From an uncultured virus (IMG/VR IMGVR_UViG_3300020057_000040) (Duplodnaviria > Heunggongvirae > Uroviricota > Caudoviricetes): a stretch of 64,000 bases of DNA. The stretch lies in the IMG/VR virus record IMGVR_UViG_3300020057_000040; one strand, 5' to 3'. A model generated the notes under the pieces. The model was not told the origin of the DNA, did no database searches, and was given only the letters and a program-made list of their open reading frames with translations. The position numbers were made by a program, and so were the translations under genes. Position 1 is the stretch's first letter, and each line of letters begins with the position of its first letter. Below are positions 17,093-64,000 of the stretch, one piece after another.

Positions 17093-18445
17093 TTAATTGT
17101 ATGCAAAACTTCCAAAGTTAAATATTTTTTCTATGTTTTTTGTTGCGAAAACCTTTTTGCTATTTTCAACTTTTACATAAGCACCTTTGTTTTGTATTCC
17201 AACTGCCTTATGTTTTTCCCCGTCAATCCAAACTAAATCTTTTGGTTGAATACCATATCTCTGTTTTCTAATTGAAGGATAAAAACCATTTCTGTTTAAT
17301 TGAATTGCTCTATTGTTTCTATGTTTCTGAATAATTGTAGTTTGTTTACAACGTTCCTGTGTTGTTCCACCTGCAATTACAAACGCATCGTTGGCGTGAG
17401 TTTTTTCAATGTTATTTTCAATTCGTTTTACCTTTGTAATGTAGCCATAAGTTAAATTAACCTCTCCGAACTGTTCTTGCAATCCATTAATAATGAAATT
17501 TTTTGAGATGTTCATAAATGTTGAACCCTTGTACTCTCTGTTCTTTTTTAGTTTCAGTCCTTTTTTGTGTAGTTTCTTGTGGCAATCTTTGTGTAGTAAT
17601 GCTAAATTAGTTGGATTATTACTTCCTGAGTTACTTCTTTCAATTATATGATGTAAGTGCCAACCGTTTTTGTCAAATCCTTTTTCGCATAATTGACATT
17701 TACCATTTTCTCTTTCAAGAATATACGCTTTCGTGTTTTCATAACCATATAAACTTCCTTGTTGGTAATCCGTTCCACTAATCTCTGAGTTATTCATTTT
17801 CTGAATATCAAAATTTGCAATTTCAAGATTAACTTTACTTACAGGAAGATATTTGCAATAAATTTCAAACAGCCTGACGTGAGCATCAATTCTTCTTTGT
17901 GTTGAAGGTGGCAACCAATTTTCTTTTTTCTTACGATTTAAAAATCTTGGCTTCCTGTACCACAGTTTGTTTCTTCTACCTCTACGGTACATTCTTTTTT
18001 CTGTTAGTCTGTCTTTTGTTTTTGAATCAAGAGTTACTTCTCCTGAAACTAATTCTTTTTTTTCTGTTACAAATGAAAACCCAATGTGCTTGTAACCTTT
18101 GTCCATCCCGCCTGTAATTTCTTGTACTTGATTTTCACATTCAAAATTTAATTGAATTACAAACGGAAATTGTCTTACTACTTTTGCTTTACCTGCTGCT
18201 AATAATTTTCGTGCCTTTGCAGGTTTACAAGGCATTAATTTTTTACCTTCAATTGAAAGTACGAGAACGTTGACGTTAAGTCCGCCTCCTCGTTGGCGTT
18301 GATTCACTTCGGGATTGTTAGAACAGGTTTTTAAACTTGCAACACTAAGACTTTGGTCTTTGTTTAATTGCAAATCACAGTTGCTACGAGCTTGTGAAGC
18401 ACTCGTAGGTGTGTTGGTTTTCCTTCTCTGTTTTAACTTCTGCAT
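17093..18445 (-). CDS. iscB: IscB RNA-guided endonuclease (RuvC + HNH); the true start may be near 18280 because the called N-terminus overlaps the omegaRNA
   Basis: KLMP(PLMP)-KARKLL, RuvC-I GMDKG, bridge helix RMYRRGRR, RuvC-II LEIANFD, HNH CQLC..HHII..HKDCH, RuvC-III HANDA. Confidence 0.93.
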   Translation of the reverse strand: MQKLKQRRKTNTPTSASQARSNCDLQLNKDQSLSVASLKTCSNNPEVNQRQRGGGLNVNVLVLSIEGKKLMPCKPAKARKLLAAGKAKVVRQFPFVIQLNFECENQVQEITGGMDKGYKHIGFSFVTEKKELVSGEVTLDSKTKDRLTEKRMYRRGRRNKLWYRKPRFLNRKKKENWLPPSTQRRIDAHVRLFEIYCKYLPVSKVNLEIANFDIQKMNNSEISGTDYQQGSLYGYENTKAYILERENGKCQLCEKGFDKNGWHLHHIIERSNSGSNNPTNLALLHKDCHKKLHKKGLKLKKNREYKGSTFMNISKNFIINGLQEQFGEVNLTYGYITKVKRIENNIEKTHANDAFVIAGGTTQERCKQTTIIQKHRNNRAIQLNRNGFYPSIRKQRYGIQPKDLVWIDGEKHKAVGIQNKGAYVKVENSKKVFATKNIEKIFNFGSFAYN

Positions 18446-18538
18446 AATTAATTATTACTAATTTTTAAGCTCCCTAATCAACAATTTAACCCGTCCTCAC
18501 GGACAAGCCCCTATCCCTTTAGGGTAGGGGTGATTGAC
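18275..18538 (-). ncRNA. omegaRNA scaffold; guide predicted to be the flank just beyond 18538
   Basis: GTCAATCACCCC start and CACCTACGAGTGCTTCACAAGCTCGTAGCAACTGTG hairpin immediately upstream of iscB. Confidence 0.75.
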
Positions 18539-27189: not shown

Positions 27190-27214
27190 ATTAAAAAATA
27201 ATTATATTTGTATT

Positions 27215-27460
27215 ATGTTTACGTTTCGCATCGTGGTAACACGATAAGTTTTTGAGGACGTTCATTTTGGACGAGGGTTCGATTCCCTCCGATTCCACTC
27301 AGGTAGTACAAAATATTTGGGTTCGATGGGTTTTGACAGATGAAGTAAGTTATGAGAATTAGAGGCGTAAAATAGTCATAACAGGCGAAGATTTAAAGAT
27401 GGCAGCATAATCTTCCCGATAGGGAACATTTATTGCCTCCTACTTCGGTAGGTCGATAAA
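27215..27460 (+). ncRNA. ssrA: Circularly permuted (two-piece) tmRNA; outer boundaries approximate
   Basis: T-arm and 3' acceptor (GACGAGGGTTCGATTCCCTCCGATTCCA, ending 27297) precede the 5' piece GGGTTCGATGGGTTTTGAC (27319). G3:U70 pair present. Tag reading frame GEDLKMAA* at 27384-27410. TATATTTG promoter at about 27203 and terminator at about 27462-27492. Confidence 0.85.
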
Positions 27461-27932
27461 GAACCTCCTTGTGAAAACTTGGAGGTTTTTTATTTTATTT
27501 TTATTATTATATTTGTTCCATATCAAAAAAACTAAAAAATGGATTTAAAAGAATTAAAAGAACAGTTAATATTACAAGCGGATGTAATTAATGATGAGGA
27601 AACAATAAGGATTATATCTAAGGAAGAAAATACTGATGATAACGAAGAATGTATTTGGGTGTCTGATGTATTAGTTTTTTCACGTCCAAATGATAAGTTT
27701 TTAATTCGTAATTTACATAAGGATAACAAGAAGGAACATATCATCACAGATTCAGAAGGTGTAGTATTTTACTTTAAAGGTTGGAATGATGCTTGTGATA
27801 ATTTCCTTTCATCAGTAAATAATGAAGAAGAAAAAAGCGAAATATACATTAAATCATATCTTGAAACAATGGAAAGTTTCTGTAAGAGTGAAAGACAGAA
27901 ATTAGAAAAATTGAATAAGTAAAAATTTAAAC

Positions 27933-29043: not shown

Positions 29044-29458
29044 GTGAACTACCCCTACCTTAAAAGGTAGTGGCTTCGGAAACGAAGCCCAAGTTCACAA
29101 GACTAAGTTCTCAGAAACGGGAGCTACGATTGAAAACTCATAACACCAACGGTTAACGCAATAGACCGTTGCTCTGTTGATTACATTTAAGAAGGGTCAA
29201 GGGATAGGCTTGGTGATGTAGTCGAAAAAAGGTTTTTAATCATTGTCGAATTGAAGTCGGATTTTTGAAATGGTTACAGTTTCAAAATACGCATTACCAA
29301 CCGAAAGGTTGTGTTTGGTCAGAAATGACCGATTTTATTCAAATGGAACTGCAAGGATTAATTTCTTTGCAGTTTCAAATGGATTTTTTAAAAACAAAAT
29401 GAAAGCGTTGAGTTCGCTTACATCCCATAGCCTAAAGGCATAGGGGTTTTACGCTCAA
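29044..29458 (+). mobile_element. ORF-less IS200/605 element consisting of an omegaRNA (HEARO-like) plus right end
   Basis: GTGAACTACCCCTACCTTAAAAGGTAGTGGC start, CACCAACGGTTAACGCAATAGACCGTTGCTCTGTTG hairpin and CATTGTCGAA motif; right end near-identical to those at about 17030-17090 and 62711-62772. Confidence 0.8.
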
Positions 29459-30296
29459 AAAGATAAATAAATAAATAAATAAAATAAAAAAAACAACAGC
29501 TATGAGCAATTTAAAAACACTTTACGAGAAAATTAAAGCGATTCCTTCTTTACCTAAAGACATCGAAACAGAGTTAAATCCACGTAACGGAGATGACGTA
29601 CCTTACATTTATGTTGATGGTTTTTCTGTTGATATTGATGGAGAAGATTTTTATGCTGTATCGGATGAAACTGATGCAGTTGAAGATTTCGCAGGAACAG
29701 AAGACCAAATTGTAGAATTTTTCAAAGGACTTTACGATGCCTACATTCAAGAAGAAATGGATGAATCAAAATCAAACGAATATTATAACAAGGGTTTCAA
29801 TTTAACTCTTGCTACATCAGAAGGTGATGATGATGATAGTGAAGAAGAAGAAGCGTAAATGATTACCGAAATACAAAAAAGATTATTTGACTTCATGGCT
29901 CTGTACTATGGACGTACTAAGTTAGAGAACGAAAATGATTATCAGGTAATGTTAGCGATATACAAGGAGATTTATCCTTATGAGCAAATACCTGAAAATT
30001 GTATCGGTTGTCGTGGCGAACTTCTGAAAAAATTACAATTTCATTACGAAACTTTAGCAGGAAACGGAACGTTCAATTAAAATTAATCGTTCTGATTTTC
30101 AGATACTTATTAAATATTTGTAAAATATATTTGCATATATTAAATTTGTTTGTCTAAATTTGTATCCTATTGAAGTGGGTAAAATTGCTTTTTCGGGTAG
30201 GAAAATCCTGTGAAAGAGAACAAGTCAAAAGAGATAACGAATACAATAGCTTTTTTGAATCCCTGAAATAGAAAACTTAAAAATTAGAAACCGCAA

Positions 30297-30431
30297 ATGT
30301 TACAAGTAAAAAATATTCAAACATCAATTTGGCACACGGCAGCGATAAAAGGCTGTGCAGTCATTTCTACTACCTTTATGAATACGGAGAAGGGGAATGA
30401 TTATGCCGATGTCGGGGTAACTTGTGATTAA
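30297..30431 (+). CDS. Leader peptide of tRNA operon 1 (44 aa)
   Basis: MLQVKNIQTSIWHTAAIKGCAVISTTFMNTEKGNDYADVGVTCD; contains TGTCGGGGT, complementary to the terminator 5' arm. Confidence 0.7.
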   Translation: MLQVKNIQTSIWHTAAIKGCAVISTTFMNTEKGNDYADVGVTCD

Positions 30432-30454
30432 ATACTTGAAAAAATATTAAATCC

Positions 30455-30485
30455 AAACCCCGACAGAAATGTTGGGGTTTTTTGT
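30455..30485 (+). terminator. Attenuator terminator ahead of tRNA operon 1
   Basis: AAACCCCGACA-GAAA-TGTTGGGGTTT followed by TTTG. Confidence 0.85.
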
Positions 30486-30651
30486 TTTACAAAAGTTTTA
30501 AAATAGTTCTTTGAAAAAGTATTGAAAAAAAATTGGCTACGGCTTTTAACCAACAAACTTGCGGACGATGGTTACGGAAGCGAGAGTGTGGCAGTAGCCG
30601 ATGAAATTAATTAACGAGTGATGATATAACGGGGAGAAAGTACGACTGTAA

Positions 30652-30756
30652 ATGCAATTTCTTGTCCACTTTGCAACTTCTCAATCATCCCAATAGAGAA
30701 AATATGACACAAAAAAATGCAACTTCTTGTCCACTTTGCAATTTTCTCAAATCACC
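30652..30756 (+). repeat. Two-copy direct repeat of about 38 bp
   Basis: AATGCAA(T/C)TTCTTGTCCACTTTGCAA.TTCTCAA at about 30651 and about 30716. Confidence 0.75.
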
Positions 30757-30773
30757 GTTGATTAAAATATTAT

Positions 30774-30856
30774 GCCTATTTCGCATAGTGGTCGATTGCA
30801 CCTGATTTGTAATCAGGATACGAAAGTACACGGGAGTTCAAATCTCTCAATAGGCT
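30774..30856 (+). tRNA. tRNA-Thr(TGT)
   Basis: Cloverleaf; anticodon arm CCTGA-TTTGTAA-TCAGG. Confidence 0.85.
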
Positions 30857-30870
30857 CAGTAAAATAAAAT

Positions 30871-30943
30871 ATCGTTATAGCTCAGTTGGCAGAGCATCGG
30901 GTTCATATCCCGAATGTCGGAAGTTCGATTCTTTCTAACGATA
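30871..30943 (+). tRNA. tRNA-Met/Ile2(CAT)
   Basis: Anticodon arm TCGGG-TTCATAT-CCCGA. Confidence 0.85.
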
Positions 30944-31401
30944 CAGTAAAAAAATGTTCTTTGAAATATTAAAATATTCGATAGGTGTAAGCGGAACGCA
31001 GAAACCGAATTGAATAGAGCGAGTTACCATGTAAGATTTTAAACAGTTAGCTGTTTATTATTTGTGTCGGTGAGAAAAAGACGGCTGTTAGCCCCACTAA
31101 GGCAATCGCATACAAACGTTGACCCGATGAAAAATAACTTCAATGAAGTTTGGAAGTGTAGAGATTTTGTTATTGGTATTGTTTTGCTTTGGAATAAAAA
31201 TATTTTTGGTTGGAGGTTCGCCTCTCTTTTTGGATGTACAATTCAGGAATTACAAAATCGGAAATAAAGCAAAGTAATACTAATGATTAATGATTGAAAC
31301 GCAAACTGATTTGATGAAACACACTTGGAAATCCTTTCTGTGCTGAAAGGAGAAAACACAAAAGCACACAGATGTTCTCGCTCTTAAAATATTTTTTAAA
31401 T

Positions 31402-31475
31402 ACGCAATTAGCTCAGTTGGTCAGAGTACGATACTGATAATATCGAGGTCGGGTGTTCAAATCACTCATTGCGTA
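31402..31475 (+). tRNA. tRNA-Ile(GAT)
   Basis: Anticodon arm CGATA-CTGATAA-TATCG. Confidence 0.9.
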
Positions 31476-31478
31476 CTT

Positions 31479-31554
31479 TGCGGGGTAGAAAAGTGGAAAT
31501 TCATGGGGTTCATATCCCCACCATGCGAGGGTTCGATTCCCTCTCCCGCTTCCA
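31479..31554 (+). tRNA. tRNA-Met(CAT), initiator-like
   Basis: Anticodon arm TGGGG-TTCATAT-CCCCA, unpaired 1:72 position, encoded CCA. Confidence 0.85.
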
Positions 31555-31557
31555 TTT

Positions 31558-31632
31558 GGACGAGTAGCTCATGGTAGGCAGAGCAGTTGATTGTTAATCA
31601 AAAGGTAGGAGTTTCGACCACTCCCTTGTCCG
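31558..31632 (+). tRNA. tRNA-Asn(GTT)
   Basis: Anticodon arm TTGA-TTGTTAA-TCAA. Confidence 0.8.
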
Positions 31633-31663
31633 CAACAAAAATGTTCTTTGATAAAATAAAAAT

Positions 31664-31737
31664 GGGATATAGGTGTACTTGGGTTGCATACCATACTGTC
31701 TATATGGTGGTGTCGGGTTCAAATCCCGAATATCCCG
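31664..31737 (+). tRNA. tRNA-Asp(GTC)
   Basis: Anticodon arm CCATA-CTGTCTA-TATGG. Confidence 0.85.
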
Positions 31738-31749
31738 CAACAAAAAAAT

Positions 31750-31819
31750 GCACGTCAGGCTATTGGCAGCCAAGCGGATTCCAACCCCGCAGGACAGAGT
31801 TCGATTCTTTGGATGTGTG
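31750..31819 (+). tRNA. tRNA-Trp(CCA)
   Basis: Anticodon arm GCGGA-TTCCAAC-CCCGC; T-arm GTTCGATTC. Confidence 0.75.
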
Positions 31820-32786
31820 CGTAGTAGAGTAGAGGCATTATGGGGCAAAGTCTTATTGTATGTAAATACGATGTAGAAAAATCCCCGCCTTGCTCGGAAA
31901 TTGAATATTAATAAATTAAAAAAAATGTTTTTAACTTGGGAATGAAAATAAAATATGCAGAGTAGGTTTACAAGACCGATGTGATTCGACGGGATGCGAA
32001 TGGAAAAAAGTATTTGGATACTGTTGTTCAAATACCGTGAGGGTAGATAACGAAGTTGCAAAAGCAAAAAATGTTGAAGTAAAAAAAATATCAACTTTAA
32101 AAAGTATAAATAAAAAAACGCTTAAAAAAGATATTCAGGAAAAAGAACACTTCCTGAAAAAAATAACAGAACCATCGAAAGATGATTTTACAAAAAAAAT
32201 AAACATTCCAATTCAAGATGATTGGATTAAAAAAATAAAAACAAATGAAAACGGACTTAAATTTTTTCGTGAATAAAGATGCAGGGCGATTTATCGTTCA
32301 CAGTTATCGTACAGGTCGCAAATATTTTGTCGAGCCTATCGAGAACGAGCATACTCCAATATGGGGTGATGTGAACCCCGCCACAGGAAAAATTGAAGGT
32401 GCGTATGGCATGAAGCATCGTGGTGGTATCAAAGAAAAAGAATCTTTGATTACAAAAGAAAATGGATTTAGTAAAATTCATTATACAGGTGTTGGTAGCT
32501 CACCATTAAGTTACATAACTGATTTGGATGAAAAATATCCATCTCTAAAAAATTAGAAATAATGAAAACGTATAAGGTAAATTTAAAAAATAAAGAAAAT
32601 GAAGTTGTTTTAACACATAATTTGTTTGCATGGAATGATGAAGATGCAAAAGAAAAGTGTGATGTTTTAGTAAATAGTGCAAGAAATAAAAATGTAGTTT
32701 CGGCTACGTTAGCTTAAAAAAAAATAAATAATGAAAACAAAATCAATTAAAATGGAAACAGACGAACCCTTTGAGCGTAGATATAT

Positions 32787-32859
32787 GTTCGGGTCGTCTA
32801 AAGGTTAGGACGTTTGGTTTTCAACCAAAAAATAAGGGTTCGATGTCCCTTTCCGAATA
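32787..32859 (+). tRNA. tRNA-Glu(TTC)
   Basis: Anticodon arm TTTGG-TTTTCAA-CCAAA. Confidence 0.8.
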
Positions 32860-33030
32860 CAGAGTAAAAAATTGTTCTTTGAAAATATTGGTTATTAGTA
32901 AATCAGCTTCCGTGAGTGCTAAGTTTTCGGTAGCAGTAAGAACCGACGAAAGTATTGAAAGATACCTGACGGAATAATTAAGGTAACGGTGGCATATACG
33001 TTAATCTAACTGAAACTAATAACCTTTAAT

Positions 33031-33106
33031 GCGGGAATAGCTCAATTGGTAGAGTATTAGCCTTCCAAGCTAAATGTTGCGAGTTCGAGCCTCGCTTCCC
33101 GCTCCA
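33031..33106 (+). tRNA. tRNA-Gly(TCC)
   Basis: Anticodon arm TTAGC-CTTCCAA-GCTAA; CCA end. Confidence 0.92.
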
Positions 33107-33115
33107 ATAAAATAA

Positions 33116-33186
33116 GTTCCTATGACCGAAGGAATAGGTGCATCTCTGCAAAAGATGATATAGTGGTTTGAATCCACTTAGGAACT
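33116..33186 (+). tRNA. tRNA-Cys(GCA)
   Basis: Anticodon arm CATCT-CTGCAAA-AGATG. Confidence 0.85.
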
Positions 33187-33545
33187 CTGAAATAAAAAAA
33201 GTAAAAATGAAAAATATAAAATCACATAGATTGAAACTTTAAGTCATTGGTGAGCAAAACCAATGGCGATAACTTTCAACGCTATGAAAAACATGAAACG
33301 TGCCGAAAGAAGGTACAAAAAACAAACTAAGTTTTTAAAAAGAATAAAAGTTTGGACTACGGGTATGTATCAATTCAACCCGATAACATTAAATGAATTG
33401 AAAAAAAATATTTTAGAAGGTAAATCACACACCTTCTTAAAAACAACAAGCCGTCCTTGTAATTGTTATTGTTGTACGTATTTAAAATATAATCGTACAC
33501 CGAAACATAAAGTGATGAAGGAGGCATTTAAAGAATAATAAATTC

Positions 33546-33617
33546 GGACGTATAACTCAGGGGTAGAGTAACGCCCTCATAAGGCGGAGGTCGGTGGTTC
33601 AAATCCATCTGTGTCCA
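33546..33617 (+). tRNA. tRNA-Met/Ile2(CAT)
   Basis: Anticodon arm CGCC-CTCATAA-GGCG. Confidence 0.85.
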
Positions 33618-33659
33618 CAGTAAGAAGTAAAATGATAGAAGTATTTTGAATTAAAATTT

Positions 33660-33733
33660 GGGGATGAAGCACAATTTGGCTGTGCAAAGGCTTTGCAAGT
33701 CTGAGGTTGTGAGTTCGAGGCTCATCATCTCCA
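33660..33733 (+). tRNA. tRNA-Ala(TGC)
   Basis: Anticodon arm AGGC-TTTGCAA-GTCT; G3:U70. Confidence 0.85.
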
Positions 33734-33747
33734 CATAAAAAATAAAC

Positions 33748-33820
33748 ATGGGGTTAGCTCAGTTGGTAGAGCGTTTGCATTACAAGCAAAATGTCATTGG
33801 TTCGATTCCGATACTCCATA
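33748..33820 (+). tRNA. tRNA-Val(TAC)
   Basis: Anticodon arm TTTGC-ATTACAA-GCAAA. Confidence 0.88.
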
Positions 33821-33915
33821 CAAAAACTAAAAATTAAAAAAATGATTGCTACAAGATATAAATTTTTAACTGTTACTTTTTCGTCAAAGCGAAAGAGTAA
33901 ACGTTATTAATTATA

Positions 33916-33988
33916 TCCCCTTGTAGCTCATTGGTAGAGCTTCCGACTTTTAATCGGAAGAAAAAAGTTCGATTCTTTTCAGGGGGAC
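33916..33988 (+). tRNA. tRNA-Lys(TTT)
   Basis: Anticodon arm TCCGA-CTTTTAA-TCGGA. Confidence 0.8.
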
Positions 33989-33996
33989 AAAATAAT

Positions 33997-34063
33997 GTCC
34001 CTTTAGCTGTTAGGTTTATTTTTAATGAGAGGGTCATGGGTTCAAATCCCATAAGGGACACCA
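33997..34063 (+). pseudogene. Degenerate, D-arm-less tRNA-like gene (TTT-like loop)
   Basis: Intact acceptor stem GTCCCTT/AAGGGAC plus ACCA and T-arm ATGGG-TTCAAAT-CCCAT; D-arm missing. Confidence 0.65.
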
Positions 34064-34120
34064 AGAATTTTTTAAAATAAATTTTTTACTTCAAATAAAA
34101 TAAATTACATTTGCATCTCA

Positions 34121-34186
34121 ATGTACAGCACACGGGAAATAAACAATACTACATCACTTCGCCTCCGAAGACGAAGGATTATATAA
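34121..34186 (+). CDS. Arg-rich leader peptide of the tRNA-Arg operon (21 aa)
   Basis: MYSTREINNTTSLRLRRRRII; Arg codons CGG, CGC, CGA, AGA, CGA, AGG; promoter TACATTTG at 34106-34113. Confidence 0.75.
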   Translation: MYSTREINNTTSLRLRRRRII

Positions 34187-34253
34187 TTATTGTTCCCAAT
34201 CTTCATTTTTTTCAAGAAATTTTATAGGTTAATATCGGGAACGTAAATACTAC

Positions 34254-34326
34254 TTTCCCGTAGTTCAATTGGAAGAACAAAAATTTTCTAAATTTTAGGT
34301 TGTGGGTTCGACCCCCATCGGGAAAT
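34254..34326 (+). tRNA. tRNA-Arg(TCT)
   Basis: Anticodon arm AAAAT-TTTCTAA-ATTTT. Confidence 0.85.
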
Positions 34327-34339
34327 CAAAAAAAAATAT

Positions 34340-34413
34340 GGTTTCGTAGCTCAATTGGATAGAGCATCGCACTACGGATGCGAAGGTTGGGAGTTCGAGC
34401 CTCTCCGAAATCA
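34340..34413 (+). tRNA. tRNA-Arg(ACG)
   Basis: Anticodon arm TCGCA-CTACGGA-TGCGA. Confidence 0.9.
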
Positions 34414-34462
34414 CAAAAAGTTATTAACGGATAGAATTTAATCAAACTAAATTAATATATTT

Positions 34463-34534
34463 GTGGTTATAGTTTAATTGGAAAAACATCAGTTTCCTAA
34501 ATTGAAAATAAGAGTTCAAGCCTCTTTAACCATT
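34463..34534 (+). tRNA. tRNA-Arg(CCT)
   Basis: Anticodon arm TCAGT-TTCCTAA-ATTGA. Confidence 0.75.
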
Positions 34535-34541
34535 CTAAAAT

Positions 34542-35013
34542 ATGTGGACAATAAAAAAAACAGTTAAGTGCGGTAAGTATATTTATGCGGTTGTTCCTGA
34601 ACATCCAAGAGCAATTAAATTTGGATATATCTATTTACATAGAATTGTAGTTGAAAATCACTTAGGAAGAATACTTGAATTAGATGAAATCGTACATCAT
34701 AAAGACGGAAACACAAAAAATAATTCAATAGATAATTTGGAAGTTATGAAACAATCAGAACACGCCAAAAAACACAGATTAGAAGTTGGTAGTTTGTTGT
34801 TTACTTAAATGCCCTCAATGTGAAAATAATTTTGAGAGAGAAAAAAACAAAACACATTTAATTAAACCATCAAAATTAGGAGCAACTTTTTGTTCACCAA
34901 GATGCAGGGGTTTATTTTCACAACGAATACAGGCAAATGTAAAACTTACAAAGGACATGATTAAATCAATAAAAAATAATGTGATAAAAGAATATAAAAA
35001 ATATACTGAATAA
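34542..35013 (+). CDS. HNH endonuclease split over two overlapping frames (34542-34808 and 34786-35013)
   Basis: HR.VVE.HLGR...VHHKDGN..NN.IDNL in the first frame; CPQC...FCSPRC zinc finger in the second. Confidence 0.75.
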
Positions 35014-35924
35014 TTTTTTATTATATTTGTATCTGCTAATGTAAAGCCGTCGCTATGGGTGCTGATACCGTTCTACAACGGAGAATAGTCTGTTCGCTGA
35101 TGGTCTTCGATTGACAATAGATATGAGGTGTGTATCAAAAAGTATGTTCGGGCAACACCTTTCGGTGAGCATACATTGTAAGAGAAGATAAGTTAGCAAC
35201 TTTAATTTGCCGTAAATTCGGTTGACCATTTAGGTCGAGAACCCACCAATATAGAGGTGGGTTTTTTTATTTATGTATGATTATTTTTTTACCGATTAAA
35301 TCTTTGTGATTATAAACGGATGTTTTATCAAAATCCTTTATTTCACCTTTTGAATTACACCTTGCGTAAACAGGCATTAATAAATCATTCATTGTAACTC
35401 CGCAGGTTAAAGATATAGGGTAAAATCCCCACTTCTCTTTTATCTCAATAGCGGAAGTTAATTTCACGTTTAATGTTCTTTTGTTGATTTTTTTAGTTTT
35501 CATAATATATGGTTTTTTAATATGGTATAAAGGTAAGTACCATGTGTGCAGCCAATCTGCATAGGTCTGAAACACTCGTAAATAGTGGGTTAAGGGTGGT
35601 GTTGATAACTTAATTACATAAATGTAAGTGGTATCACATATTATGATTACATTTGATTCACTTTTTAAGCCAAAAAAATGATAAAACACAGTCATTAACT
35701 AAAACCCATTTATTATGAAAAAATAAGTAAAAAAACCCCGTTATACTTCGAGAAAAAAGTAAGCCATATTAAGTTAAGATATATTAAGGTGAAATCCTTC
35801 CATTATTGGGGGGATTTTTTTTATGCCTTGATGGTAATATTTTATCAATATGAAAACCATTAAGTTACGATATGTTAATATATTTATTTGAATATGTTAT
35901 ACATTTGTTATACATTTGCTATAC

Positions 35925-47456: not shown

Positions 47457-47767
47457 TAACGGAATGAGTATTGGAGAAGTTTTTAATGCGATTTTGAAAC
47501 ACTAAATAAAAATATATATGACAACAGAAGAACAAATAGTAAAATGGTTTGCAGACTTTAGAAAAGAGAACCCAAAGTTTGAAAACGAATATGTTGATAA
47601 CGGACAACTAATTTATTGGTTAGCACAAAAGGAAGCATTAAAAATTTCTTCCAATACTGTGTTAGCGGATAGTTGCCGTTTTTATGAACAGGATAATACT
47701 ACAGCGATGAACTGCAAACATTGTGGTAAGGGTAAATATATGCACGGAAACAGCAATTTACGCTAAC
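47457..47767 (+). repeat. Cassette (site plus ORF 47518-47766), duplicated at 50711-51021
   Basis: About 311 bp near-identical; both copies run from TAAC to TAAC and encode identical 82-aa proteins. Confidence 0.95.
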
Positions 47768-50710: not shown

Positions 50711-51021
50711 TAACGGAATGAGTATTGGAGAAGTTTTTAATGCGATTTTTAAACACTAAATAAAAATATATATGACAACAGAAGAACAAATAGTAAAATG
50801 GTTTGCAGACTTTAGAAAAGAGAACCCAAAGTTTGAAAACGAATATGTTGATAACGGACAACTAATTTATTGGTTAGCACAAAAGGAAGCATTAAAAATT
50901 TCTTCCAATACTGTGTTAGCGGATAGTTGCCGTTTTTATGAACAGGATAATACTACAGCGATGAACTGCAAACATTGTGGTAAGGGTAAATATATGCACG
51001 GAAACAGCAATTTACGCTAAC
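50711..51021 (+). repeat. Second copy of the duplicated cassette, adjacent to the integrase
   Basis: Matches 47457-47767. Confidence 0.95.
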
Positions 51022-55238: not shown

Positions 55239-55460
55239 GTTTTATATATTTTTTAAATTATAATTATTTAATTTTAAGTATAATAAAGGTATCTTTTAAA
55301 TCAATGTACACTAAAAGTTTATGTTTGAGTAAACTGACGTGTAATAACAGCAGATTAAACAATGTTAATGATAATTAATTAGACTGATTTTCAATTACTT
55401 AAATATTATTTTTAAAATAAATTTTTTTGTTAGGAATTAATAATTTAGTTTTGTGTCATT

Positions 55461-55532
55461 ATGAAGAATTTGAGTTTACATAGTTTATCGTATCTGTACC
55501 TGTTAAAAGGTTCGGGTGATTCTCTATTGTAA
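55461..55532 (+). CDS. Leu/Ser/Tyr/His-rich leader peptide of tRNA operon 3 (23 aa)
   Basis: MKNLSLHSLSYLYLLKGSGDSLL; promoter TAGTTTTG at 55446-55453. Confidence 0.8.
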   Translation: MKNLSLHSLSYLYLLKGSGDSLL

Positions 55533-55565
55533 ACATTATGATATAAAAATAATTAACTTACACGG

Positions 55566-55600
55566 AAAACCCTGAACCTAAAAAGTTCGGGGTTTTTTGT
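55566..55600 (+). terminator. Attenuator terminator ahead of tRNA operon 3
   Basis: AAAACCCTGAAC-CTAAAAA-GTTCGGGGTTTT followed by TTGTTTT. Confidence 0.85.
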
Positions 55601-55633
55601 TTTGTACTAATTCGTTCTTTAAAAAAAATATAT

Positions 55634-55710
55634 GGTGTTATTAGCTCAGTTGGTTAGAGTGCCTGATTGTGGTTCAGGAGGTCGTGGGGTCGTAGCCCAC
55701 ATAATACCCA
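55634..55710 (+). tRNA. tRNA-His(GTG)
   Basis: Anticodon arm CCTGA-TTGTGGT-TCAGG; G-1 present. Confidence 0.88.
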
Positions 55711-55713
55711 AAA

Positions 55714-55806
55714 GGAGAAGTACCCAAGTTGGTTAAGGGGGCAGTTTGCTAAACTGTTAGGTCGTGTAAAAACGATGCGTGAGTTCGAGCCTCACTTTCT
55801 CCGCCA
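55714..55806 (+). tRNA. tRNA-Ser(GCT)
   Basis: Anticodon arm GCAGT-TTGCTAA-ACTGT; long variable arm; CCA end. Confidence 0.92.
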
Positions 55807-55839
55807 AGAGTAAAAATGTTCTTTGAAAATGAATTTATT

Positions 55840-55922
55840 GGAGGGATGCGACCAACGGTGGTCAACTGCGTTTGAAGCGCAGGGCGGTCTTTACGGACAG
55901 GGTTCGATTCCTAATCTCTCCG
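55840..55922 (+). tRNA. tRNA-Ser(TGA)
   Basis: Anticodon arm CTGCG-TTTGAAG-CGCAG; long variable arm. Confidence 0.85.
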
Positions 55923-55936
55923 CAAAAATTAAATAA

Positions 55937-56020
55937 GGGAGTTTATCCAAGTGGTCAACGGGGACAGACTGTAAATCTGTTGGCTTTATGCCTTCGTAGG
56001 TTCAAATCCTACAACTCCCA
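55937..56020 (+). tRNA. tRNA-Tyr(GTA)
   Basis: Anticodon arm ACAGA-CTGTAAA-TCTGT. Confidence 0.92.
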
Positions 56021-56033
56021 CAAAAATAAATAT

Positions 56034-56120
56034 GCCGATATGGTGAAATTGGACAAAGACACAACAGACTTAAAATCTGTCGCCTTCAATGGCATCCCGA
56101 TTCGAGTTCGGGTATCGGTA
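56034..56120 (+). tRNA. tRNA-Leu(TAA)
   Basis: Anticodon arm ACAGA-CTTAAAA-TCTGT. Confidence 0.88.
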
Positions 56121-56134
56121 CAAAAAATAAATAT

Positions 56135-56220
56135 GCGGGTATGGCGAAACTGGCTGATACGCACCTGTTTTAGAAACAGACGCTTTAAATGGCATAAGGG
56201 TTCGACTCCCTTTACCCGCA
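56135..56220 (+). tRNA. tRNA-Leu(TAG)
   Basis: Anticodon arm CTGT-TTTAGAA-ACAG. Confidence 0.88.
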
Positions 56221-58817
56221 CAAAATAAAAATAGGTAACTATATATCTATTGGGACAAGGTTTAAAATTTTTAAGCCGTTTTTGTAGGAAATAACAAACA
56301 TTTTATTTTTTCACATACTTTTCTTTGTATTCTTGTTTAAGTTCTTCTTCGAGTTCAAACATCTTATCCCACTCAGGTAATTTTCTTAAATCATCACGGC
56401 TTCCATTATCCCATAAAAAATGTTGGTTATACGTAATTAATTTTATATTTGGTTCATATAACTTGAATAATGGGTATCTGTTTTCTGCCTTTGGTAATAC
56501 GTGTGAAAAATTACTAACACTAAATTTATAAATTGGTTCACCGTTAATAAATGATATGTGTTCCTTCATACTCTCCCACATGGATTGCATGAGTTGTAAT
56601 TCTCCTGTCGGTACTCTTTTATAAGTTATAGGACTTTTCTTTAACTGTTTATAAACTTTCTTTGGCTTATCCTTATTTTTTTCTATTAATTTCTTTCTTT
56701 TTTCACCTGCATAATGATAACCGCATAACGGTGGATTTCGTTTTGATAATCGTTTTACTTTATCGTCTGTACACATACTGCATACACCTTCCATTATTAT
56801 CATAACGATAATGTTATTTTAAATTTTACAGTAAATATTTTCTTTAATATCAGTAATTTTTAATTTTTCAATTATTTTCTCCATACTTTCAATACCCGTA
56901 GGTGCAAGTGTGAACCTTTCAACCTCAATTCCTTTATCGTTACAACAAAGTAAAGTCCAAACCATATTATTACCTAATGCAATTAATTTATAACTACTGT
57001 ATCGTTCCGTTTTTAATTCGTGTACCCTATCTTCAAACCAATCGGATACATCTACGGTTATTCTTATTTTCATAAAATATTTTATAATTTTTAATTACTC
57101 CAATTGAATGTAAATGAATCTACTGTATTTAATTTTTTGAATTTATCACCGAATGTTTCTTTAGCATAATTTTCTAACTTATCATATAGTTCATCATATT
57201 TTATTAATGTATCACTAACTGTTTTTACTGATTGCTTAGTATTCCTGTATGATAAACTTGATTGTACCCAACCTTTAAAGTAAGTATCTATGTAATCAAA
57301 GCAGCTATTCCTATTTAAAAAAACACCATGCCAAATAGAAACAACAATATCATCATCCAATATGTAAGCGACAGTATTCCATTCTTTAATGAAAACAATT
57401 TCTAATATTTTTTTTATATCCATTATGATTAAATTTCAGTTTAAGCCTTTTTACCGAATATGACATTACTCTCAAATATATCTTTTTTTAAATGATAACA
57501 CTCATTTTTTATTACCCGAATAATAACATCTGCTAATAAATCGTTTTAGTTTTTAATTAACTTCTTGTTGCAAATGGTGATTCGTTTTTTACCATTCCGA
57601 AATTATAAATCTTATGTTTCTCAGCAATATCTGAAATTTCATCACGGGTCATTGTTTCTAATAATTGATTACGTGCGACACAAACAGTATCAAACAAAAT
57701 TAAGTTCGCCTGACCTTCCGTTAAGTTGTCTATGGTGTATTTCAAATAACGTTCAGGAGTAAATTCTTCATAGTAAATACCTGTAATTATAATTTTTACT
57801 TTCCTTAGTTTATCCTTATCGGTTACTTTACCGAAAAAGTATTTATCAAATTTTTTACCTTGTTCTTTTTGTTCGGATTTTGGCATAATCTTTTGCAATC
57901 TGTTTCGGATGTTAATACATATCTCGTGGCATATAACCAATACATCAATGGTAGTTAATTCATTTCCTTTTTCTTCACCGTCAACAAATAGTAACATCTT
58001 ACGGTCAGGGTGTGGTACATCACAGAAGTCACCTGATATTTCTAATTTAAACGGCTTTAGTGTTTTCATATTTTGACATTAAATCATAAATTCTTTTGCT
58101 AATTTACTACATAATGAAGTGAGTTCTTTTTCGCCTGAAATATTTTCAGTTGTTTTGTCATCAACTCTGCGGTATAATGCGTTTATTATAGCCGTTTTTT
58201 CTTTTTCATTAAAAATAAAATTGAATATAAATTTTCTCATGTTAATTTTTTTTTTAAAACGTTAAACCAATCAGTAAATTTTTTATTTTGTATTTTTTTT
58301 ATGTTTGCAATTAAAATGTTTTGGTCTTACAGATTCCATTATTTTTTTAGTTTATTATTAATAAAAACATATTCAGCGTGTGAAAGTGCTTGATGGTATT
58401 TTTTAACCGACTTAATGAAACCAAAGAAAGCCATTTTGCTAACACCAACATATTCGTTACCATAATCCAAAGGTTCTCTTTCTGTTTTAGGAAATATTTT
58501 TTCCGTGTTAGAATCCATAGAGTTTTTAAGCAACTCGTATTCGGCTGCATTTAAAGCAAAGTGATATTTATTCATAACAGATAATAAGTGTTTAAAACTA
58601 TTACCTGAATCAAACTTCTTTTTGTAAATACCATCTTTAACTCTATTCCTAACAGGAAATATTTTTATTGATTCCATTGCTTCTGTAATTTTATCAACTT
58701 TTTTTTCTACTGCTTCTGCCATCTTACGAAGCAACTCCAAAGTTTCAGGTGAACAATTGGGACTGACTGTTGCAACTGACTTTGAAGTTACCCGTATATG
58801 GCGGTGGTCATCAAACA

Positions 58818-62771: not shown

Positions 62772-64000
62772 TTAGTTTAAATTTAATTTTTGTGTATCAA
62801 TAATCCAACTTTTTCTTGCACTAACTCGTTTCATTTTTTCAAACTTAGGAATTGGTTTTAGTTCAACTTTTTTGTTATCAATGTTCATTAGTATGGCGTA
62901 TCCTGTTGCCATTCTACCTTTGATAAAATATATTTTTCCTTCGTATTCAACCTTGTCAAATTTTCTGAATCCTTTGATTTTTCCAACAGGAATAATTTGT
63001 TCAGAGCGCACTCCTTTTCTTAATTGAAAATCTCCATCTGAAATACACCTCTTTAAAATAATTTCATTTGTTTTAAAAGTAACAGGATTTCCATTGCTAC
63101 CAATTGCAACAGCATCAAAATAATGTTCTTTTGGCAAACCAATTAATTGTCGGTGTTCTTTTGTAATGTATCCAAAAGTTTCTTCTGCATTTGAAAGTCG
63201 TTTTAATAATTGAACACGAATTGAGTTCATTTGTGTAGCATGATTTAATTGACCTTTCTTTTTACCTTTTAATTTAAGAATAATTTTTCCTGAGTGTAAA
63301 TCTTCATGGCAAGTATCGTGCAAGGTTATTAGATTTTTTTCATCATCAGAACCACCTTCACTTTTAAAAATAATATGATGAACTTCTAATTTTTTGTTTT
63401 CTGTTTTCTTTTTACAATGTTGACAAATATAATTATCACGGTGCAAAACATAGGATTTTGTATTTGCGAAACCATAGTTAATTCCTTTTTGATATAACGA
63501 ATTATTTTTTAAAACATCAGGGTTTTTTAGTGCGTGTGTGTCAAAAGTTGCTGTTTCAATTTTTAATTTTGTAATAGGTAAAATTGATTTTACAAATTTA
63601 ATTTCCTTTAAATGAGAATTAATTTTACTTGTCATTGTTGGTGAAAATCTGTCAGTTCTGATACTGTTTTTTCTATTGTCGAATCTTGGTTTTCTGTATC
63701 TTGTATTTTTGTTTCTGCGAAACCTTCGATACTTTGAACGCTGTGTCATTTTTTCTGAAACATCATTTCTGATTGTAATTTCAGAAACATAAACAACTTC
63801 ATTTTTTTCATTCAAAACTGCACTTCCAACAACCGAACTTCCTGAATCAATATCATGTTCTAAATCTTGTTTGTAGTCGGTTGTTTCATAATTTAATTGA
63901 ATTGTAAAAGGCGTAGTCATTACTACTTTCGCCTTGTTTTGTTTAAGCAAAATTCTTCCAATTGCCGAACAGCATGGCATCAGAGGATTTTTTTCTTTGC
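62772..64000 (-). CDS. iscB: Second IscB nuclease; 5' end runs off the window; element right end at about 62711-62772
   Basis: NPLMPC at the window edge, IDSGS, RSKYRRFRR, IETATFD, HNH CQHC..VHHII..HDTCH and HYFDA motifs. Confidence 0.92.
   Translation of the reverse strand, partial: KEKNPLMPCCSAIGRILLKQNKAKVVMTTPFTIQLNYETTDYKQDLEHDIDSGSSVVGSAVLNEKNEVVYVSEITIRNDVSEKMTQRSKYRRFRRNKNTRYRKPRFDNRKNSIRTDRFSPTMTSKINSHLKEIKFVKSILPITKLKIETATFDTHALKNPDVLKNNSLYQKGINYGFANTKSYVLHRDNYICQHCKKKTENKKLEVHHIIFKSEGGSDDEKNLITLHDTCHEDLHSGKIILKLKGKKKGQLNHATQMNSIRVQLLKRLSNAEETFGYITKEHRQLIGLPKEHYFDAVAIGSNGNPVTFKTNEIILKRCISDGDFQLRKGVRSEQIIPVGKIKGFRKFDKVEYEGKIYFIKGRMATGYAILMNIDNKKVELKPIPKFEKMKRVSARKSWIIDTQKLNLN

Follow-up and report, generated by a model that had tools for sequence, protein, structure and literature searches.

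Multivalent leader attenuators such as thrL and ilvL, with those of other amino acid operons (trpL, hisL, and pheL), are the closest described counterparts of the element considered here, a short leader open reading frame (ORF) that precedes a large tRNA block in a 64,000-nucleotide (nt) stretch of an uncultured virus of the Caudoviricetes (IMG/VR record IMGVR_UViG_3300020057_000040; this whole stretch is called the window). Amino acid operon attenuators likewise have a short leader ORF with regulatory codons, together with an antiterminator and a terminator that share one arm, with a race between ribosome and polymerase (PMC1183508). They nevertheless control biosynthetic enzymes or a synthetase, whereas phage tRNA genes lie downstream here, and they read one to three amino acids, compared with twelve at this locus and all 20 in one related leader. 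Their regulatory codons form runs, in contrast to the dispersed codons found here, where the antiterminator arm also lies at the very end of the ORF. Finally, absence of translation causes super-attenuation in amino acid operons, while read-through is predicted here.

Other described systems share parts of this design. T-box riboswitches, which are reportedly found upstream of tRNA genes in Clostridia, also let the state of a tRNA set a terminator/antiterminator switch, but a T-box binds uncharged tRNA directly, involves no translation, and reads one codon, unlike a translated multicodon leader; it could not sense the loss of a tRNA. Arrest-peptide leaders of the ermC and tnaC type depend on a conserved peptide sequence, whereas the equivalent leader in a relative of this virus (G001, described below) cannot be aligned with that of the window. 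Nus/boxA antitermination of rRNA and tRNA operons similarly involves long untranslated transcripts in which a boxA-like element recurs, but the element here is downstream of the gated terminator. Rfam searches of the locus, at the gathering threshold and at E ≤ 1, returned no described leader, T-box, or riboswitch family.

Depletion of tRNA is described as a recurring antiviral strategy (PMC13462974), and phage tRNA arrays can replace host tRNAs, as for the tRNA-Tyr of T5 and SP15 against retron-Eco7 and PrrC, where the level of expression matters (PMC11555353). A strong promoter drives expression in that system, whereas expression here looks conditional, and the words “attenuation” and “leader” are absent from the main text of the same paper. 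The term “terminator” has no match in the phi38:1 transcriptome study, which in the passages covered discusses only host tRNA genes (PMC5335546), or in a study of large Bacteroidetes phages with 5 to 25 tRNAs (PMC9723584). No account of attenuation of phage tRNA genes was found in the literature covered, most subscription papers lying outside the search. The mechanism is known from amino acid operons; its phage tRNA-gene target appears new, although absence from print is not proven. The additions made here are family-wide covariation of leader and block, a positional test, a Pro/Phe/Gln prediction borne out in a relative, and cultured model phages.

We propose that the locus is probably a multivalent, ribosome-mediated transcription attenuator of a phage tRNA operon, one in which ribosome and polymerase race each other, with negative feedback that would replace host tRNAs in short supply. 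An earlier note on this DNA had already suggested that the leader acts as a codon-matched attenuator of the tRNA block, and permutation, positional, and pairing tests across leader families support that suggestion.

Anatomy of the large tRNA unit

The anatomy and the pairing described here, like the leader-block covariation below, are read directly from the sequence. A short leader ORF lies between a candidate promoter and the tRNA genes, and a terminator stands shortly 3' of its stop codon. The predicted antiterminator excludes the terminator, and its arm would be covered by a ribosome completing the leader. The parts of the unit are as follows (window positions).

30126 to 30162, plus strand: candidate promoter with three adjacent -7 elements, at 30126, 30141, and 30155 (motif scan)
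30297 to 30431, plus strand: leader (sensor) ORF of 44 amino acids; codons 2 to 35 are the predicted sensing stretch (ORF list)
30401 to 30420, plus strand: weak predicted hairpin (-6.7 kcal/mol) that could mask the antiterminator arm and might serve as a pause or protector element
30410 to 30418, plus strand: antiterminator arm at codons 38 to 41, with pairing reaching about 30429 (reverse-complement match and folding)
30455 to 30488, plus strand: intrinsic terminator, an 11-pair hairpin (30455 to 30480; -16 kcal/mol) followed by a U tract
30506 to 30514, plus strand: boxA-like element just 3' of the terminator, with further copies at 30956, 31643, and 32874
30774 to 30944, plus strand: tRNA-Thr(UGU) and tRNA-Met(CAU) (ARAGORN and Rfam)
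31402 to 31820, plus strand: tRNA-Ile(GAU), -Met(CAU), -Asn(GUU), -Asp(GUC), and -Trp(CCA) (ARAGORN)
32037 to 32717, plus strand: three small ORFs within the block, of 79, 103, and 51 amino acids, in no family
32787 to 33187, plus strand: tRNA-Glu(UUC), -Gly(UCC), and -Cys(GCA) (ARAGORN and Rfam)
33263 to 33538, plus strand: ORF of 91 amino acids within the block, its DNA a 70% match to the same place in G001
33546 to 33988, plus strand: tRNA-Met(CAU), -Ala(UGC), -Val(UAC), and -Lys(UUU) (ARAGORN and Rfam)
33997 to 34063, plus strand: degenerate tRNA with a reduced D arm (Rfam, 33997 to 34060, 36.5 bits; fold)

The 14 tRNAs of the block (30774 to 33988) serve exactly the 12 amino acids of the leader set, namely, Thr, Met (three), Ile, Asn, Asp, Trp, Glu, Gly, Cys, Ala, Val, and Lys, where the three Met tRNAs are assigned by their CAU anticodon, with initiator, elongator, and Ile2 types pooled. 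Default ARAGORN called 13 of the 14, and tRNA-Ala (33660 to 33734) came from Rfam and relaxed ARAGORN. The terminator 5' arm (30457 to 30465) is common to terminator and antiterminator and, as the earlier note held, is the exact reverse complement of 30410 to 30418. Folding predicts two candidate pause hairpins, one at 30401 to 30420 and another 3' of the leader stop codon.

Leader composition

The leader has 36 of 44 residues in the 12-amino-acid set (35 of 43 without Met1), with all 12 represented, all four Thr codons used, no Arg or Pro, and a single Leu; recomputation gave the same counts as the earlier note. All 12 amino acids are reached by codon 35, Met through Met1. We agree with its caution that composition alone is weak evidence: against a window-proteome background of 64.4% in-set residues, enrichment in this leader alone has a P of 0.012 and the presence of all twelve by chance a P of 0.09, the joint P being 0.001 to 0.002. 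The leader scores a z of 3.0 for its own set and at most 2.1 for the 55 other blocks. Use of all four Thr codons, correctly counted, is not significant (P = 0.13 for six draws) and was dropped as evidence. Codon diversity was not significant in this leader (17 versus 15.2 expected; p 0.16); across 54 of the 56 families defined below, in-set core codons were more diverse than expected (417 distinct versus 399 ± 6). The leader ORF belongs to no family in Pfam or PHROG.

Covariation of leaders and tRNA blocks

Viral contigs were scanned for a terminator tail followed by a boxA-like element, a pattern blind to ORFs, and the loci are those among the matches listed. For each terminator near a tRNA cluster, a script then took the longest ATG ORF of 15 to 62 codons that ended in a fixed range, ignoring composition. 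From 168 loci and the window it returned 187 units in 122 loci, of which 88 were kept after removal of loci of <4 kb and of identical peptides; clustering at 60% identity gave 56 families. Summed enrichment z for the own block was 111, compared with 0.5 ± 9.8 under permutation (0 of 100,000 as high), and 39 families at a stricter 45% identity gave 77 versus 0.6 ± 7.8 (again 0 of 100,000). The own block was enriched in 48 of the 56 families and ranked first in 29.

The enrichment is located in the leader core, which held 559 in-set codons of 972, with 345 expected (z 16.9), and the signal was weak at both ends (codons 2 to 5, 85/224, z 1.7; last eight codons, 166/448, z 1.9). Of 368 block amino acids, 328 were already represented upstream of the final eight codons, compared with 221 ± 10 in 5,000 permutations (maximum, 254). 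The gap from stop codon to hairpin was 22 to 39 nt in 50 of the 56 families. Where leaders share a locus, the matched pairing of leader and block exceeded the swapped one in 37 of 41 pairs.

The relative G001, a 170-kb record in which one of the scanned loci (L034) lies, keeps the tRNA order of the large block. Its large-block leader has 36 amino acids, 28 of 35 in the set and 12 of 12 represented, but gives no BLASTP alignment with that of the window at E ≤ 100; because it holds all twelve yet does not align, composition rather than peptide sequence is what has been kept. Neither default nor relaxed ARAGORN called Gln, Phe, or Pro tRNAs in the window, in agreement with the earlier note, which had predicted that they might lie elsewhere behind their own leader. 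The relative bears this out: its large block is followed by Arg, His/Ser/Tyr/Leu, and Pro/Phe/Gln blocks, so that the four together serve all 20 amino acids, and a separate leader and terminator precede the Pro/Phe/Gln block (z 4.9, 3/3 amino acids present, rank 1). At a finer scale, a strain variant present in two DNA runs has eight differences over 1.9 kb, of which two lie in the leader, where they affect codons 24 and 27 (both out of set); the pairing arms are unchanged, which lends weak support to the switch.

Cultured phages with the same layout were found through tRNA similarity alone. Cellulophaga phage Calle_1 (MT732432) has a leader and a terminator before each of its three blocks; 18/24, 19/28, and 18/28 leader residues fall in the own block and no more than 7 belong to either of the other two Calle_1 blocks, and every own-block amino acid is present. 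Phage phi38:1 (KC821614) carries the same three units, phi4:1 (KC821632) has three, and Maribacter phage Panino (PP540027) has two, these last two phages being matched by eye; in Panino, a further terminator is weak and follows an ORF of unrelated type. Two units were also present in the part analyzed of a 636-kb uncultured phage. When the second half of the block was used to search a phage collection, it returned isolated tRNA matches only.

In cellular genomes, a tRNA lay within 1.2 kb of the terminator-boxA pattern at 2 of 75 loci, compared with 59 of 75 viral loci (both among the matches listed); use by host genomes is still conceivable.

Pairing and predicted switching

In 200 codon shuffles, none matched the duplex between the leader and its terminator arm (-19.8 kcal/mol), and among 200 synonymous recodings, 2 did; the duplex also ranks first among the 56 arms. 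Across families, leaders paired better with their own terminator arm (-11.2 kcal/mol) than with those of others (-8.6 ± 0.3; 0/20,000). In snapshot folds taken before the terminator 3' arm is free, for three ribosome footprint sizes, antiterminator probability was at least 0.9 with the ribosome at any codon up to 35 to 37, a limit that depends on footprint size, and below 0.1 beyond it. In snapshots without a ribosome it was 1.00 in two and 0.34 in the third.

We infer leader translation, switching, and the kinetics of the race, as well as the role of boxA and the purpose. Host RNA polymerase would start at the Bacteroidota-type promoter, and a ribosome would translate the leader behind it. 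With the twelve aminoacyl-tRNAs plentiful, the ribosome would pass about codon 36 in time and cover the antiterminator arm, and the terminator would form, leaving the 14 tRNA genes off. If it were delayed at any earlier codon, or if initiation failed, the arm would pair with the terminator 5' arm ahead of synthesis of the 3' arm, and the resulting antiterminator would permit read-through, with boxA-like sites assisting elongation through the untranslated region. Newly made tRNAs would then relieve the delay; as the operon would thereby supply the very tRNA that was limiting, the loop would be one of negative feedback. The purpose is most likely to make good shortages of host tRNAs during infection, among them shortages caused by anticodon nucleases; amino acid starvation is also a conceivable input.

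A boxA-like role of this kind would be protection of transcription through the untranslated block. Six of the seven plus-strand copies in the window lie inside the two terminator-gated tRNA blocks; they are named for their resemblance to the boxA motif of rRNA operons. An element of this kind is also found upstream of a Flavobacteriales host tRNA operon (L211), where the script found no leader ORF.

Alternative explanations

Several observations weigh against a broad, codon-matched switch. Eight of the 56 families, retained in the count, showed no enrichment (these include truncated blocks and ORFs resembling ordinary genes), and the 56 families represent related phages that are incompletely independent, for which the same-locus swaps and the cultured phages serve as controls. 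Considered one at a time, only 23 of 56 leaders exceed their codon shuffles in antiterminator strength, and only 16 of 56 exceed their synonymous recodings. Codon choice shows no clear tuning, GC3 being raised in in-set and out-of-set codons alike, and the first Asp is codon 35, at the edge of the ribosome footprint. In full-length equilibrium folding, the terminator has a probability of at least 0.95 for stalls at codons 19 to 32, 0.84 without a ribosome, and 0.10 to 0.95 for codons 1 to 18, and forced folds differ by <2 kcal/mol either way. Equilibrium therefore favors the terminator at codons 19 to 32, and broad sensing needs cotranscriptional kinetics, i.e., kinetic trapping; a kinetic race of ribosome and polymerase is usual for attenuators (PMC1183508). 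The same folding gives some substance to a narrow, trp-like switch in which only stalls near codons 33 to 35 (Gly, Asn, and Asp) free the antiterminator and the remaining codons go unsensed: terminator probability falls sharply there (0.70, 0.44, and 0.16) and is stable at codons 19 to 32 because of the small hairpin at 30401 to 30420. We nevertheless find such a switch improbable, as the families show enrichment along the entire leader core, with most block amino acids covered, and G001 keeps all twelve in another order.

The most serious competitor, although an unlikely one, accepts the switch and changes its purpose: it might sense amino acid starvation or slow translation, or tune expression to the host tRNA pool, rather than counter destruction of tRNA directed against the phage. 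A stalled ribosome cannot distinguish uncharged from missing tRNA, the arrays cover nearly all 20 amino acids and not a few nuclease targets, and classical leader attenuators all read charging (PMC1183508). Against this, extra tRNA would be no cure for a lack of amino acids, the existence of several blocks, each sensed separately, agrees with loss of specific tRNAs, and overexpressed phage tRNA rescues phage from tRNA-cutting defenses (PMC11555353). It is more doubtful still, and slightly more so than the narrow switch, that termination is constitutive, or that an antitermination factor (of phage or host) or internal promoters circumvent it, with the leader incidental or concerned with timing only. 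The terminator is strong, the 5' untranslated part of about 130 to 140 nt is long enough to hold a loading site, and there are boxA-like sites as well as one -7 element inside the block (31201); the first boxA-like site is, however, downstream of the terminator and so cannot act on it, and bypass leaves unexplained the covariation of leader with block and of leader end with terminator arm. Chance resemblance of a short ORF in AT-rich DNA to a large amino acid set (the set makes up 64% of the proteome, and the P of this leader alone is modest) has a negligible probability, being contradicted by the family permutation tests and by the independent cultured phages.

Sister units and other features of the window

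The window (30.7% G+C) contains many small ORFs, HNH nucleases, a ParB-like protein, an integrase, and a nicotinamide phosphoribosyltransferase and looks like part of a large phage. It also has three tRNA units and a permuted tmRNA (27206 to 27501; ARAGORN and Rfam). A motif scan with the Bacteroidota-type -7 consensus placed such elements upstream of all three tRNA units. The two sister units are as follows.

34106 to 34535, plus strand: Arg unit, with promoter element, leader (34121 to 34186), and three tRNA-Arg
55446 to 56221, plus strand: His/Ser/Tyr/Leu unit, with promoter element, leader (55461 to 55532), terminator (55562 to 55600), and boxA-like element

The architecture was said to match in all three. 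This is fully so for the His/Ser/Tyr/Leu unit (tRNA order His, Ser, Ser, Tyr, Leu, Leu), in whose leader 16 of 22 residues are those four amino acids (P 3e-7). The Arg leader has 6 Arg in 20 residues, encoded by five different codons (P 4e-5), but neither the terminator scan nor the unit script found a terminator upstream of the Arg tRNAs. Within the region 34121 to 34330, a hairpin (34192 to 34243) lies between the Arg leader and the first tRNA-Arg, and its 3' arm can alternatively pair with the 5' acceptor strand of that tRNA; the predicted probability of this pairing is 1.0 with a ribosome at the stop codon over the 5' arm and 0.1 to 0.95 otherwise. In G001, the Arg-rich leader ends about 10 nt upstream of the tRNA. 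The Arg unit possibly controls tRNA folding or processing. An HNH ORF (34542 to 34808) follows its tRNAs, and farther on (35022 to 35270) come a promoter element, about 230 nt of structured noncoding sequence, and a strong terminator, a candidate small RNA with no Rfam match; that terminator would end the Arg unit too.

Within the large block, tRNA-Thr(UGU) (30774 to 30857) is 84 nt long with a long variable arm, and its G001 counterpart has 73 nt. Two imperfect copies of about 35 to 40 nt, noted by eye, lie right upstream of this first tRNA (30650 to 30755), and in G001 (L180) an ORF with an HNH-like motif, also by eye, is inserted between the boxA-like site and tRNA-Thr. The small ORFs of the block differ among strains, because a strain in DNA runs X10 and X11 lacks about 500 nt of 31860 to 32482, including part of them. 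No function for ORFs in the block was obtained from Pfam, PHROGs, or a protein atlas; a protein search for relatives found only L049, where a relative of the 103-amino-acid ORF also sits in a tRNA array, one without a leader unit according to the script. Structured spacers directly follow boxA-like sites at 30970 to 31395 and 32885 to 33028. Neither has an Rfam match; the 3' part of the former matches G001 at 76.5% over 81 nt, and the long closing stem of the latter is also present in G001. Both are candidates for unknown RNAs cotranscribed with the tRNAs.

Elsewhere in the window, Rfam identified two HEARO RNAs (17093 to 18538 and 29044 to 29261), one of which adjoins a 450-amino-acid HNH ORF; the other has no such neighbor. 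A related HNH ORF of 402 amino acids lies at 62772 to 63980, and an ORF of 82 amino acids occurs twice (47518 to 47766 and 50772 to 51020), with the first 70 residues identical. Among the other viral loci, L029 and L043 have a 39-amino-acid leader that holds all 20 amino acids (P = 0.004, window-proteome background) before a 27-tRNA array, and their 40% G+C and sigma-70-like promoter (by eye) suggest another host group. The arrays of L024 and L116 include a tRNA called selenocysteine by ARAGORN.

Implications

The reason why phages carry tRNAs is a long-standing question, for which codon bias, decay of host tRNA, and evasion of defense have been considered. If the proposed attenuator is real, decoding speed on the codons of the block itself would be read and tRNAs would be made on demand. 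Such on-demand synthesis favors the view that lost host tRNA is being replaced, and it predicts that the block stays silent when infection is ordinary. The switch would also extend attenuation from amino acid enzymes to the tRNA pool and raise the number of inputs from at most three to twelve or more. The layout is testable now, because cultured phage-host pairs carry it, and infection transcriptome sequencing (RNA-seq) of phi38:1 in two hosts is published. More broadly, and with about equal weight for and against, Bacteroidota phages might run a complete monitor of tRNA supply, in which a few blocks, each with its own codon test, divide the 20 amino acids between them and only the block for cut or exhausted host tRNAs is made. 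Such a monitor would be an inducible counterdefense against anticodon nucleases that needs no protein sensor, with this locus as its 12-input case; the Arg unit may use a second output, leader translation deciding the folding of the first tRNA instead of termination. Each leader could act as a reporter for tRNA-cutting defenses.

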